Notes: generated from the letters alone by a model not told the origin. 64,000 nucleotides of DNA from Candidatus Micrarchaeota archaeon (GCA_028867135.1 JAGWGW010000002.1:22170-86169), one strand, 5' to 3'; counted from the stretch's first letter, positions 7,899 through 11,406 are shown. Program-made: numbers and translations.

Positions 7899-8426
7899 AT
7901 GAATAACGTGGAAGACACGCTGAAGGGGAAGATACGGGACATTCCCGATTATCCGAAGAAGGGCATACTCTTCAGGGACATAACGCCTTTGCTGAAGGAC
8001 GGCAGCTCGTTTGCGTTGTGCGTCGACGAGCTCGCGAAGAGGGTTTCGGACATCGACTTTGATTACGTTGTTGGCATAGAGGCGAGAGGATTCATAATAG
8101 GCGCTGCGCTCGCGTACAAGATGAAGAAGGGGTTCATACCGATAAGAAAACTTGGGAAGCTTCCCTACAGGAGGATAAGCAAGGAGTACGCTCTCGAATA
8201 CGGCACCGCGACGATAGAGATGCACCATGACGCGCTCGCAGGCGGGCAGGAGGCCCTTCTTGTCGACGATCTTCTTGCGACAGGCGGAACTGCCAAGGCC
8301 GCGGCTGAGCTGGTAGAGTCGGTAGGAGGGAAGGTCGCGGGCTTCGCCTTCGTGATAGAGCTTGCCGGGCTGAACGGCAGGAGCATGCTCGGAAAGAGCA
8401 GGATAGACACGCTGATGAAATATTGA
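7899..8426 (+). CDS. apt: Adenine phosphoribosyltransferase
   Basis: PDYPKKGILFRDI, EARGF, LEYG and VDDLLATGGT motifs. Confidence 0.96.
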   Translation: MNNVEDTLKGKIRDIPDYPKKGILFRDITPLLKDGSSFALCVDELAKRVSDIDFDYVVGIEARGFIIGAALAYKMKKGFIPIRKLGKLPYRRISKEYALEYGTATIEMHHDALAGGQEALLVDDLLATGGTAKAAAELVESVGGKVAGFAFVIELAGLNGRSMLGKSRIDTLMKY

Positions 8427-9061
8427 TGCTTATGCTATTTGCCTTCTCGATAATACAGGCGATCATTTCGCTGCTCGCAGGCGCGTCTGGCGCGATAAAC
8501 GCGATAATATCGCAGTACGGCTACATAGGCATATTCGTATTGATGACGCTCGAGTCCGCGTCGATGCCGATACCCAGCGAGGTGGTGCTTCCTGCAGTCG
8601 GCCATTTCGTATACACGGGGCAGCTGAACATCTACATAGCCGTCATTGACGTGCTGCTTGCAAGCCTGGCAGGCTACATGATAGACTACGCCATAGCTTA
8701 TTACGTAGGAAAGGAGGTGGTGTACAAGCACCTGGGACTTTTCCGCATAAAGAAGGAGAGCATAGATGCTTTTGACAGGTGGTTCCTGAGGAACGGCCCC
8801 TTTGCGGTCTTCGTCGCAAGACTGCTTCCAGGGGCAAGAGGACTGATAAACTTTCCTGCTGGTTTCGCGGAGATGCCGCTGAAGAAATTCATATTCTATT
8901 CAATGGTAGGCGCATTTATATGGGAGGTGGCGCTCATAGGCTTCGGGTACTACGCGCTATCCACAGGAAGCCTGACCATAACTGCTGTGGCGATAGCGCT
9001 CTTCCTGATAGCGCTGTACCTAATCTACGACTATGCGCTGAAGAGGATAAGGAAGGGATAG
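8423..9061 (+). CDS. DedA family membrane protein
   Basis: LESASMPIPSEVV and ARLLPGAR...AG motifs. Confidence 0.92.
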   Translation: MMLMLFAFSIIQAIISLLAGASGAINAIISQYGYIGIFVLMTLESASMPIPSEVVLPAVGHFVYTGQLNIYIAVIDVLLASLAGYMIDYAIAYYVGKEVVYKHLGLFRIKKESIDAFDRWFLRNGPFAVFVARLLPGARGLINFPAGFAEMPLKKFIFYSMVGAFIWEVALIGFGYYALSTGSLTITAVAIALFLIALYLIYDYALKRIRKG

Positions 9062-9388
9062 TCACTTGGTTTCAGGCTCCCTTTTCTCTATTATGTAGTT
9101 CTTTACTATCTTTATTACCTGGTCTATCGCCCTCTTTATGTCAGCCTCTGTCTTCGCACCTGTGCAGATTATCTTGCCGTTCTTGAAAAGAAGCAACGCT
9201 GTCTTGGGATCGTGTATCTTGCATATGGCTCCAGGGAACTGCTCAGGCTCGTAGTCGACGTCGGGCGATGCCTTGGCGATGCCGTAAAGGTCGAGCTCTA
9301 CCCCCAGATCGGCGCTGGCCACTATATTCTCGATCTTGAAGACCGGGTGGAGCTCTACCCTTTTTCCGGATTTAGCGTGCTTTGGCAT
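9062..9388 (-). CDS. Single-repeat TATA-box binding protein-like protein (108 aa)
   Basis: One TBP repeat: IENIVASADLG...YEPEQFPG...DPK..LLFKNGKIICTGAKTE. ATG at 9388, TGA at 9064-9062. Confidence 0.9.
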   Translation of the reverse strand: MPKHAKSGKRVELHPVFKIENIVASADLGVELDLYGIAKASPDVDYEPEQFPGAICKIHDPKTALLLFKNGKIICTGAKTEADIKRAIDQVIKIVKNYIIEKREPETK

Positions 9389-9418
9389 TCGAATCACACT
9401 ACTATTAAAAAGCAAGTG

Positions 9419-9436
9419 TTTATAAAGGTTTATAAA
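9419..9436. promoter_or_regulatory. Two palindromic TTTATAAA boxes 10 bp apart in the divergent tbp-like/rpl21e intergenic region
   Basis: gTTTATAAAggTTTATAAAgc seen directly. Confidence 0.7.
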
Positions 9437-9477
9437 GCAAAGAATAAGTGTTTCTATTTTGGTTAGAGGTAGTAGGC

Positions 9478-9765
9478 ATGACTGGAAGGTCGCACGGTCT
9501 TTTTGTAGGCAGGACAAGGCAGCTAGCCAGGCATAACCCTCCTTCAAGGCTGGGGATAAGCAAGCTTCTCAAGAGCTTCGCGATAGGCTCCAGGGTGCTG
9601 ATAATGCCCAAGGGCAACTTCAACAACATACCCCACCCTAGGTACAGGGGAAGAGTAGGCACGGTTGTTGAGAAGAGGGGTGGCGCATACGTAGTTGAAG
9701 TGCACACGTCGAAGTCGACCATCAGGAAGCTTGTTGTCCCGCAGATGCATCTCGACAAGGCATGA
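9478..9765 (+). CDS. rpl21e: 50S ribosomal protein L21e
   Basis: RSHG...TR, PHPRYRGRVGTV and P.HL motifs. Confidence 0.93.
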   Translation: MTGRSHGLFVGRTRQLARHNPPSRLGISKLLKSFAIGSRVLIMPKGNFNNIPHPRYRGRVGTVVEKRGGAYVVEVHTSKSTIRKLVVPQMHLDKA

Positions 9766-9818
9766 TCTTTTTCTGAACCGGCAATAAGTATAAATACCAG
9801 AATCAGGTCCATCTCAGT

Positions 9819-10499
9819 ATGGCCGGTCTTGATTCTTATAAGTCGAAGCCTAACAGCGCGCAGGCAAGGTTCCGCGGCAAGGGAGGCATAGACCAGGAGA
9901 AGGTAAGGGTTGCAGTAGAGAGGAGCAGGCCGTATTTTGAGCTTGTGAGGAGGGTTGAGGGCGAGTTCGGGAACCTGCGCGACAGCTATGAGGGCCTTCC
10001 GAAGGAGCTGAAGGCTTTGTGGGTTAGCAGGAGGATATACGTCGAGAGCGAGCTGCTGAATGGGGTTGTTATATCGTCCGTTGTTGGCATACAGCCTGCG
10101 CTAGACGTAGGAAGCAGGACATACAAAAGAGTGCTGAAGAACCGTTACGGCGTGATCTTGGACAATAGGGAAGCGAGAAGGGTTGCTGCGTTAAGGGAGG
10201 CGCAGAGGCAGAGCGATAGGGAATTTGAGGAAAGTTATGCATCATCAAGAGGCAATGGCAATGCAAGGGCCAGGCTTAACGGAGCAGCAAGGGGAGGAAG
10301 GAAATCCAGGATAACCGACGAGCAGATCAGGGCTGCGCACAGCGACAAGAAGACGGCCGCGGAAATGGCTAAGGAATTCGGCATCGGCAGGAATCAGGTA
10401 TACGTGCGTCTGAGGGCATTGAGGCTTAAGCCCAACGGCAGGATTAGACAGGGCCAGGGTTCTGCGCTCACACATCATGATGGAAGGACGGCCTTGTGA
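9819..10499 (+). CDS. Hypothetical basic protein with C-terminal helix-turn-helix
   Basis: TAAEMAKEFGIGRNQVYVRL; own BRE/TATA-like element (aataagtataaatac, 9783-9797). Confidence 0.6.
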   Translation: MAGLDSYKSKPNSAQARFRGKGGIDQEKVRVAVERSRPYFELVRRVEGEFGNLRDSYEGLPKELKALWVSRRIYVESELLNGVVISSVVGIQPALDVGSRTYKRVLKNRYGVILDNREARRVAALREAQRQSDREFEESYASSRGNGNARARLNGAARGGRKSRITDEQIRAAHSDKKTAAEMAKEFGIGRNQVYVRLRALRLKPNGRIRQGQGSALTHHDGRTAL

Positions 10500-11046
10500 G
10501 AATGTAGAACCTGCTGTCCCCTTTCAGCTCGATGATTACCCGCTCTGCAAGCAGCTTGACCGGGTCCTGTAGCAGCGACACCCTCTTTGTTATGTCCTCG
10601 AAGCTCTCGAAGGACTTGTCCTCCCTTGCGTCTAGGATCGCGGCCAGGTGCTTCTTGCCTATCCCCGGAAGCAGCTCCAGAGAATGCATGCGTATGTTGA
10701 GCGGCGATGCCGTGTTGAACAGCTCCACGAAGTGCTTCTCGTTCTGCTTTATTATCGCATAGATCGCTGGCATGAGCTCGTTCTTTGCCCCTTCGGTAAG
10801 CTCGCTGTACGAGAGCCTGCCCTTTATGAGCGATATCTTGTCCCTCTCCCCTTTTCCTATGTAGACCCTTGTGCCTGTCCTGATGTCGCTGTCCTTCGCC
10901 ACGGCCTCGAGGAGCGTGAACCTCTGCTCTCCGAGCAGCTGCACCAGCGGCTCAGACTTTATCGACGATGACCTTCCGGTGGGAAGATAGTCTAGCACCA
11001 CTGCGTACTCTTCCAGACCCTCCCGTTTCTGCTCCATCTCCTGCAT
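10468..11046 (-). CDS. DUF655 putative RNA-binding protein
   Basis: EEYAVVLDYL, FTLLE, LELLPGIGKK (HhH) and FESFEDI motifs. Confidence 0.92.
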   Translation of the reverse strand: MQEMEQKREGLEEYAVVLDYLPTGRSSSIKSEPLVQLLGEQRFTLLEAVAKDSDIRTGTRVYIGKGERDKISLIKGRLSYSELTEGAKNELMPAIYAIIKQNEKHFVELFNTASPLNIRMHSLELLPGIGKKHLAAILDAREDKSFESFEDITKRVSLLQDPVKLLAERVIIELKGDSRFYILTRPSFHHDV

Positions 11047-11064
11047 GCTCTCCCCTGTGCAGCC

Positions 11065-11406
11065 TTATTGCTTTCCCCTATAGCTTTCGACTATACCCAT
11101 AAGCTTCTTGCAGGCTTCGTCGTCGGGGGTGAGCCTGTCCATGACCAGTATCAGCTTCAGCTGCGTGATGTCGACCGGCATTATCTCCACCGTCTTCAGC
11201 GCCGTCTTCTCCAGCATGCCGTTTTCCATCAGCTCGGCCTTCATCTTCTCGGCTTCCTTCTTGCTCAGCTTTGAGAACTTCTTCGCGTGCTCGTACTCTA
11301 TCTGCTGCTCATATCCGAGCTCGCCGTCCTTCTTCCTCTCTTCCAATATGTCAAGTACGTCTGCTATCGAGACCATCCTTGAGGAAGCCTGCTTCTTTCC
11401 AATCAT
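11065..11406 (-). CDS. rpoF: RNA polymerase subunit Rpo4/RpoF
   Basis: LGYEQ...EHAKKFSKL...EIMP pattern; directly upstream of DUF655. Confidence 0.88.
   Translation of the reverse strand: MIGKKQASSRMVSIADVLDILEERKKDGELGYEQQIEYEHAKKFSKLSKKEAEKMKAELMENGMLEKTALKTVEIMPVDITQLKLILVMDRLTPDDEACKKLMGIVESYRGKQ

Follow-up and report, generated by a model that had tools for sequence, protein, structure and literature searches.

A single-repeat TATA-binding protein gene in a Micrarchaeota genome, predicted to act as the general TATA-binding protein in homodimeric form

The canonical archaeal TATA-binding protein (TBP) carries two PF00352 repeats in one chain of about 180 amino acids, and a symmetric pair of identical half-proteins has long been proposed as its ancestral form. 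Small archaeal proteins with a lone TBP domain have been described. In the parts of the study by Brindefalk et al. that were accessible to us, a full-length TBP is present in every genome of Table 3 as well, halobacterial TbpA is non-essential, and the Thermococcales proteins are distantly related to TBP with low pairwise similarity (PMC3597702). "Single lobe versions" in archaea were also reported in 2020, as far as the available portion of that text goes (PMC7221094), and a comparative DPANN paper merely lists TBP as conserved (PMC8407392). On the promoter side, the accessible sections of Grunberger et al. (2019) describe BRE-TATA-BRE promoters of P. furiosus that fire in both directions (PMC6640164).

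Here, we analyzed a stretch of 64,000 nt (the window) from Candidatus Micrarchaeota archaeon, a DPANN member (GCA_028867135.1, JAGWGW010000002.1:22170-86169; the assembly is referred to as G000). The following features of the window are relevant to its TBP gene.

8423..9061, plus strand: DedA/VTT-domain membrane protein gene (PF09335, E 2.7e-18), convergent, its stop adjacent to the tbp stop
9062..9388, minus strand: half-TBP gene (protein P0001, group A), 108 aa, ATG start, no internal stop
9389..9477: divergent tbp/rpl21e spacer of 89 bp, putative core promoter region of both genes
9393..9399, minus strand: putative Shine-Dalgarno-like GTGTGAT, 5-11 nt before the tbp ATG
9419-9426: TATA-like box 1, palindromic TTTATAAA, at -31..-38 from the tbp ATG, its centre 34.5 nt before it
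9429-9436: TATA-like box 2, palindromic TTTATAAA, at -41..-48 from the tbp ATG
9478..9765, plus strand: ribosomal protein L21e gene (rpl21e; PF01157, E 2.2e-11), ATG at 9478, divergent from tbp

An earlier note on this DNA had claimed that the 108-aa frame holds exactly one TBP repeat, and the ORF, its translation and Pfam all agree with this. The single PF00352 match runs from residue 17 to residue 98 and takes in profile positions 2-85 of 85 (E 3.5e-30; score 104.1 bits, cut-off 22.9), so the protein, with one repeat in 108 aa, falls outside the class of polypeptides with two tandem repeats. The claim that a second repeat would find no room is likewise correct, as the dedA/VTT gene ends at 9061, the TBP stop codon occupies 9062-9064 and the upstream side is taken up by the 89-bp spacer. 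The best match among solved structures is P. woesei TBP (1PCZ, E 2.6e-45), and 35 distinct PDB TBP sequences match at E<=0.001. The window protein is equally similar to both P. woesei repeats (77.8 bits for the first, 78.8 bits for the second): its strand S1 (FKIENIVAS) resembles the first repeat, and its stirrup YEPEQFPG equals that of the second letter for letter, in line with the reported retention of an acidic EPEQ stirrup. The Asn of ENIV and both minor-groove Phe positions, also said to be kept, are indeed present. Asn21 (ENIV), Phe51 (EQFPG) and Phe68 (LLLF) align with equivalent residues of both P. woesei lobes and are unchanged, together with the EPEQFPG stirrup, in 48 of 48 aligned half-TBPs. 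We take the two Phe per lobe, here Phe51 and Phe68, to be the intercalating Phe of TBP, and the C-lobe-type acidic stirrup is presumably the part that contacts TFB/TFIIB (1AIS/1D3U structures). EYEPEQFPG is common to all Micrarchaeota repeat groups and to haloarchaeal C lobes, unlike haloarchaeal N lobes.

TBP was present in 40 of 40 genomes searched in the window's order (G000 and 39 relatives), as single-repeat frames except for a tandem in G019 discussed below, and no two-repeat TBP of the order's own was found among the genomes examined. The tallies include the unpublished G037, whose sequence was left aside and on which none of our conclusions depends. The earlier note had raised the eventuality that near relatives carry a two-repeat TBP at the window's tbp locus; this was not seen in the genomes examined from the order, but it is the case in other families of the class. 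As a fused TBP sits at the same locus in those families, the window half-gene is its positional orthologue. Two-repeat genes did occur in two genomes of the order's families that were sampled later, L068 (G153:C43) and L185 (G052:C77), but both appear to be of foreign origin. L068 matches a Nitrososphaerota TBP cluster with 100% identity; L185 comes from a contig of just 3.7 kb, and its branches in the tree are very long. Bin contamination of this type could mislead a census of "normal" TBPs. Among the half-TBP loci, L139 is labelled as a Saccharimonadales bacterium and several others as Marsarchaeota, labels that probably reflect wrong binning or naming of Micrarchaeota contigs. A scan of genome contigs with the half-TBP alignment yielded only 80 close Micrarchaeota loci and none from outgroups.

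Most genomes of the order possess two unlinked half-genes at distant loci, A, which adjoins rpl21e, and B. Group A evolves slowly and holds the window gene, whereas group B comprises 30 entries from families f1 and f3 (support 89 in the repeat tree and 97/90 in the careful tree); the A and B proteins of the same genome are 47-53% identical (5 genomes). rpl21e adjoins A genes in seven families (f1, f3, f7, f12, f14, f15, f16) and 8 of 10 fused Micrarchaeota TBPs fetched, the two misses having only about 350 nt of flank, but it adjoins none of the 30 group B genes. This identifies group A as the positional orthologue of ordinary tbp. The wider neighbourhood tbp-rpl21e-rpo4-DUF655 is kept in at least seven families of the class. 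In the window, DUF655 and Rpo4/RpoF-like genes are located beyond rpl21e at 10468-11406 on the minus strand. Between rpl21e and DUF655, the window has a 226-aa ORF (9819-10499, plus strand) whose one domain match, to a resolvase-type HTH, is weak and does not reach the cut-off (E 3.3e-4). It gave no tblastn match in the other loci of the set (195 in all), and in several relatives rpl21e is directly followed by the Rpo4 and DUF655 genes; the ORF may be an insertion.

Only A was found in 16 genomes of f1, the window's family (G000, G002, G003, G010, G011, G018, G020, G021, G058, G083, G086, G093, G106, G111, G113 and G147). Most of them fall into two tree groups, one with the window gene and its nearest relatives, and G021 stands apart. 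Each of G018 and G058, which consist of one contig, and of the three-contig G003 gave one match at E<=1 with a 48-sequence half-TBP profile, so that incompleteness of G000 alone cannot explain the missing partner. Taken from this distribution, the common ancestor of the order probably had two unlinked half-genes, A and B, and the comparison of genomes indicates that B was lost in the window's lineage. Across the class, exactly one PF00352 match was present in 40 of 150 genomes, among the matches listed; within the same matches, the one-match genomes include f10, f11, f12, f14, f15, f16, f17, f18, f20 and parts of f7. A genus of f7 has three half-TBP genes in G116 (L082, L189, L190) and in G134 (L071, L191), where two of them are about 1.2 kb apart on one contig, and two were found in G159 (L072, L192). 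The extra f7 copies form their own clade (support 99) and have no rpl21e neighbour.

The earlier note had suggested looking for a full-length TBP or a second half-TBP in the genome, and neither turned up in the G000 assembly, a MAG of 961,386 bases in 33 contigs with 93.9% completeness. PF00352 has a single match in it, the window gene. An unfiltered search (hmmsearch --max) of 20,188 six-frame pieces with a profile built from 67 half-TBPs returned the window gene at E 6.5e-50 and a runner-up at E 1.7; by both searches, this 93.9%-complete assembly contains no second TBP domain. One TFB gene is present (G000:C8). As no canonical TBP was found, the half-TBP should be the basal factor itself, and the ideas of an "alternative basal factor" or a "TBP/TFB competitor" lose their footing, since nothing that it could replace or compete with turned up in the assembly. 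Given the fragmented and incomplete state of the MAG, the case for a missing partner rests on the relatives.

A lone lobe is unable to form the saddle, which makes a homodimer the simplest reading. A symmetric homodimeric saddle, as the earlier note had envisaged, is also what structure prediction favours. The homodimer model scored 0.61 (runs 0.65, 0.61 and 0.61), whereas none of three controls exceeded 0.01, with a partner pLDDT of at least 81 and at least 70% of contacts shared between runs. When this score was calibrated, 20 of 30 proteins whose structures are pairs of one chain attained the mark, as did 1 of 23 whose structures are single chains; these counts hold only roughly here because the complex was modelled with an alignment of our own. 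In the model, S1 (residues 15-30) runs antiparallel to S1' with residue 22 against residue 22, which is the dyad, and residues 73-75 and 81-96 also take part in the interface. S1 and S1' likewise meet at the pseudo-dyad of canonical TBP; since this pairing is known, the good score of the homodimer may reflect memory of solved two-lobe TBPs. With one TBP-domain gene found in the genome and a homodimer model that passes its controls, we consider it likely, at odds of roughly three in four, that the half-TBP is the organism's general TATA-binding protein in one-lobe form and acts as a homodimer. Dimerization, from the model only, as well as DNA binding, TFB binding and basal function are predicted properties.

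In the mechanism that we propose, two identical 108-aa subunits would pair via S1 (residues ~15-30) and helix H2 to give a ten-stranded saddle like the one formed by the two fused repeats of canonical TBP. Each subunit would contribute its Phe51 and Phe68, so that a quasi-palindromic TATA box would face four intercalating Phe, and the dimer would carry two identical C-lobe-type stirrups of the kind that canonical TBP uses for TFB. Promoter direction would then be set by TFB and BRE rather than by TBP. For P. furiosus, the accessible part of PMC6640164, citing Cox 1997 and Bell 1999, states that TBP is symmetric on the TATA box and that TFB sets the orientation; a symmetric TBP would thus be tolerable in archaea.

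Several alternatives have to be weighed against this homodimer. The source is a short-read metagenome assembly, in which a TBP gene might have been misassembled or truncated, or might be decaying. For positions 8800-9800 of the window we found nine DNA runs from 3 studies and no RNA run, and contigs from 4 other runs of 2 studies tile this region without indels and with 0-1 differences in the best-fitting pieces; a few short contig pieces differ by 4-7 letters and probably belong to relatives. One independent contig covers 8800-9341 and spans the stop codons of both dedA and TBP. The misassembly or deletion against which the earlier note had cautioned is therefore not what the other runs show. 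Moreover, 79 of 80 related species-level loci in public genomes have one single-repeat frame of 95-164 codons, and the relatives' half-TBP genes mostly have an ATG of their own, followed by a short basic tail that leads into FKIENIVAS, with no start assignable in 9 frames. Compared with 23 family orthologues, synonymous sites are near saturation (pS 0.49-0.92) at a pN of 0.005-0.097, and dN/dS is 0.003-0.08 in the 17 pairs with computable dS; the half-TBP gene is under strong purifying selection. These data support the window gene as an intact, selected single-repeat TBP and reduce an artefact to a negligible option.

It is also conceivable that the half-TBP forms an asymmetric TBP with a group B half-TBP or a fused TBP encoded in the unassembled ~6% of G000. 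Most genomes of the order do have two half-genes, whose A and B products likely make an asymmetric TBP there, and G005, which shows B alone at 88% completeness, tells us that single halves can escape detection. However, all 16 A-only f1 genomes lack B, mostly in groups that follow the A-gene phylogeny, the nearest relatives of G000 (G113, G111, G147, G011, G086, G106 and G002) are among them, and the one- and three-contig genomes give the same result. As B genes reach E ~1e-25 with PF00352, they would have been detected if present, and we regard a hidden partner as unlikely. A partner might instead be a TBP-like helix-grip protein without recognizable sequence likeness, again giving an asymmetric saddle. 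Far-diverged TBP-fold domains do exist (RNase HIII, DNA glycosylases and the Thermococcales monopartite proteins, according to the accessible part of PMC3597702), and sequence and HMM searches are blind to such proteins. Yet the whole six-frame translation of G000 contained no candidate below E 1.7, the homodimer model passes its controls, and S1, the strand at the interface, belongs to the best-conserved segments of the half-TBP, as self-pairing predicts, so that we find this proposal rather improbable. Somewhat less credible still is an accessory role as a regulator, competitor or nucleic-acid binder, with promoter recognition left to something else. This would be close to the "alternative factor or competitor" idea and would fit the known stand-alone TBP-domain proteins, which are accessory and non-essential in the available text of PMC3597702. 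Those proteins coexist with a full TBP, though, and none was found in G000 or in G018, G058 and G003. In addition, the window gene occupies the ancestral tbp locus adjoining rpl21e, all DNA-binding and TFB-stirrup signatures are kept, the likeness to solved TBPs is close, and G000 has both a TFB gene and TATA-like promoter boxes.

The two perfect palindromes that had been noticed 31-48 nt upstream of the gene, one helical turn apart, are there, at 9419-9426 and 9429-9436 with a 10-bp period, and they are the only copies of TTTATAAA in the window (expected 0.46; at least two in 8 of 100 shuffles); by count alone, the pair is only mildly unusual. Across G000, 26 of 34 copies of TTTATAAA lie outside long ORFs, a fraction that makes up 10.7% of the genome. 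The related words TATATAAA and TATTTAAA likewise fall outside long ORFs in 65-76% of cases, and oriented TTTAWATA words are most frequent 25-50 nt ahead of predicted start codons. This concentration of TATA-like words outside long ORFs and before starts marks the boxes as ordinary promoter elements. In G000, GGTGA/AGGTG words have their maximum 9-12 nt ahead of predicted starts. The segment 9419-9438 is a 10-bp tandem, TTTATAAAGG followed by TTTATAAAGC, and the phasing of the boxes results from this near-perfect repetition of TTTATAAAGG.

The divergent arrangement of tbp and rpl21e was found in 133 of 134 loci with both genes, with a median spacer of 88 bp. For comparison we used 121 loci with spacers of 40-200 bp, which represent 100 distinct sequences, some assemblies being present in two collections. 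The AAGGTATWTAWAT motif occurs in 67 of these 121 spacers, and 26 have a GTTTTTC-like word on the other side too, giving the order BRE, TATA, inverted BRE; mostly, the relatives' spacers have one central BRE-TATA motif and a second AT-rich box. Two exact copies of TTTATAAA are confined to the spacers of the window and of L169, 2 of 121, and phased double boxes were accordingly rejected as a conserved feature. In L169, the arrangement is the reverse complement, TTTATAAACCTTTATAAA, located elsewhere in the spacer, near its tbp start. A special meaning of the two phased boxes, as the earlier note had implied, is not borne out by these numbers and by their position in the divergent tbp/rpl21e promoter region. 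Autoregulation by the half-TBP, which the earlier note had brought up, may occur but gains no support from these data.

We read the box pair as the probable core promoter or promoters of divergent tbp and rpl21e. The centre of box 2 (9432.5) is half a base off the spacer midpoint (9433), and AAAGG precedes this box on the plus (rpl21e) strand, as in the central BRE-TATA motif of the relatives. By spacing, the tbp leader would measure ~9 nt from box 1 or ~19 nt from box 2, both within the genome-wide range, and the rpl21e leader ~20 nt from box 2. The two genes may share a single central box, or there may be two back-to-back promoters that overlap, with each box acting as the A-rich BRE of the other. 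The P. furiosus bidirectional promoters, as presented in the accessible part of PMC6640164, also have a quasi-palindromic TATA box between divergent starts. The relatives' tbp/rpl21e spacers resemble them in the order GAAAGGT-ATTTATAT-GTTTTTC, that is, BRE, TATA and inverted BRE. In contrast, the window spacer has two TTTATAAA boxes and no single central motif.

In 22 fused TBPs of other Micrarchaeota families (among them P0002, P0101, P0003 and loci from the L176-L188 set), the two repeats are 51-89% identical to each other, compared with 38-47% in 11 control TBPs from haloarchaea and Nitrososphaerota and 37% in the fused gene L185. The best 120 database matches comprise 99 two-repeat proteins, with repeats 50-88% identical, and 21 single-repeat proteins. 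N repeats group with the C repeats of their own lineage in the careful tree: support is 97/86 for f9 with f13, 98/88 for f6, f8 and f21, 100/99 for P0002 with an f12 half and 100/100 for P0101, and there are at least four well-supported N-C sister pairs among fused Micrarchaeota TBPs. Forcing all 21 N repeats into one clade costs 159.6 log-likelihood units, and the AU test rejects a single origin of these repeats (p 2.8e-53). This leaves several fusions from one-lobe genes, or homogenization by gene conversion. At a contig end of G019 (L012:1486-1897), a 36-residue lobe tail, a unique linker and a full lobe follow each other in frame with no start between them. The shared part is identical at 99 of 102 bases, and the contig breaks inside the repeat; the tandem may reflect a very recent duplication that re-fused the TBP into a nearly perfectly symmetric form, or it may have arisen in assembly at the contig end. 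L116 shows the same frame, yet it is probably the same assembly as G019 and thus no independent support.

All Micrarchaeota repeats form one clade, with support of 99/97 in the careful tree, in which the outgroups were four haloarchaeal plasmid TBPs, and of 100/98 after addition of six Nitrososphaerota TBPs. These repeat trees are unrooted, are based on 92 columns and leave many forks without resolution. Canonical N lobes constitute a clade (96/89 in the unrooted tree) that excludes the Micrarchaeota repeats, which may lie among or beside the C lobes. With the haloarchaeal outgroup alone, haloarchaeal N and C lobes came together opposite all Micrarchaeota repeats, a topology that we distrust because of the biased composition of haloarchaeal proteins. 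An unrooted tree of three clades looks the same whether the lobe was once a C lobe, was once an N lobe or predates the duplication, so that the root decides the history. The parsimonious reading would be a secondary reduction from a two-lobe ancestor, since other archaea and eukaryotes appear to share the N and C lobes, and descent of the lobe from a TBP older than the N/C duplication seems to us highly improbable. [quoted passage not shown] An exactly symmetric dimer with two equivalent TFB-binding stirrups would make every strong TATA box intrinsically bidirectional, and tbp and rpl21e would then be read outward from the palindromic box in the middle of the 89 bp between them.

Compared with canonical archaeal TBP, the window protein has the same repeat, matching the solved chains that we compared (P. 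woesei 1PCZ/1AIS/1D3U, M. jannaschii 2Z8U and S. acidocaldarius 1MP9) at E 2.6e-45 to 1.4e-38, and shares the Asn, Phe and stirrup signatures. Its gene is found at the locus of the fused TBPs of other Micrarchaeota families, and it presumably uses the same partners, TFB and TATA/BRE promoters. It differs in having one repeat per chain without a covalent linker, and a short basic N-terminal tail takes the place of the inter-lobe linker. With one repeat per chain, the saddle would have to form between chains, exactly symmetric and with both stirrups of the C-lobe type.

The monopartite TBP-domain proteins, TbpA and those of Thermococcales, resemble it as single TBP domains that are independent small archaeal proteins, as described in the accessible parts of PMC3597702 and PMC7221094. 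In contrast to their hosts, the window genome contained no full TBP that we could find, nor did G018, G058 and G003, and, unlike the Thermococcales proteins, the window protein is close to TBP (E 2.6e-45) and occupies the tbp locus. Our searches of open main texts turned up neither a half-TBP serving as the sole TBP nor split TBP genes in Micrarchaeota or DPANN, nor re-fused TBPs in Micrarchaeota. Stand-alone TBP-domain proteins are already in print, always beside a full TBP. For annotation, we advise that half-TBP genes should not be flagged as truncated and that single-half genomes should not be scored as TBP-less.

A free-living lineage with a single-lobe sole TBP would make the ancestral single-lobe hypothesis experimentally approachable. 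It raises the questions of whether a perfectly symmetric saddle binds and bends TATA DNA, how many TFB molecules it recruits, how direction is chosen and what is gained from fusion. Close counterparts are the A/B half-TBP pairs and the re-fused TBPs of other Micrarchaeota. The window protein belongs to their group A and shares 69-83 of 84 core residues with its family, but its lineage has lost B, whereas other lineages have A and B together, three halves (G116, G134) or fused repeats. One-half, two-half, three-half and freshly re-fused forms occur side by side in the class and provide natural replicates for the step of duplication and fusion.
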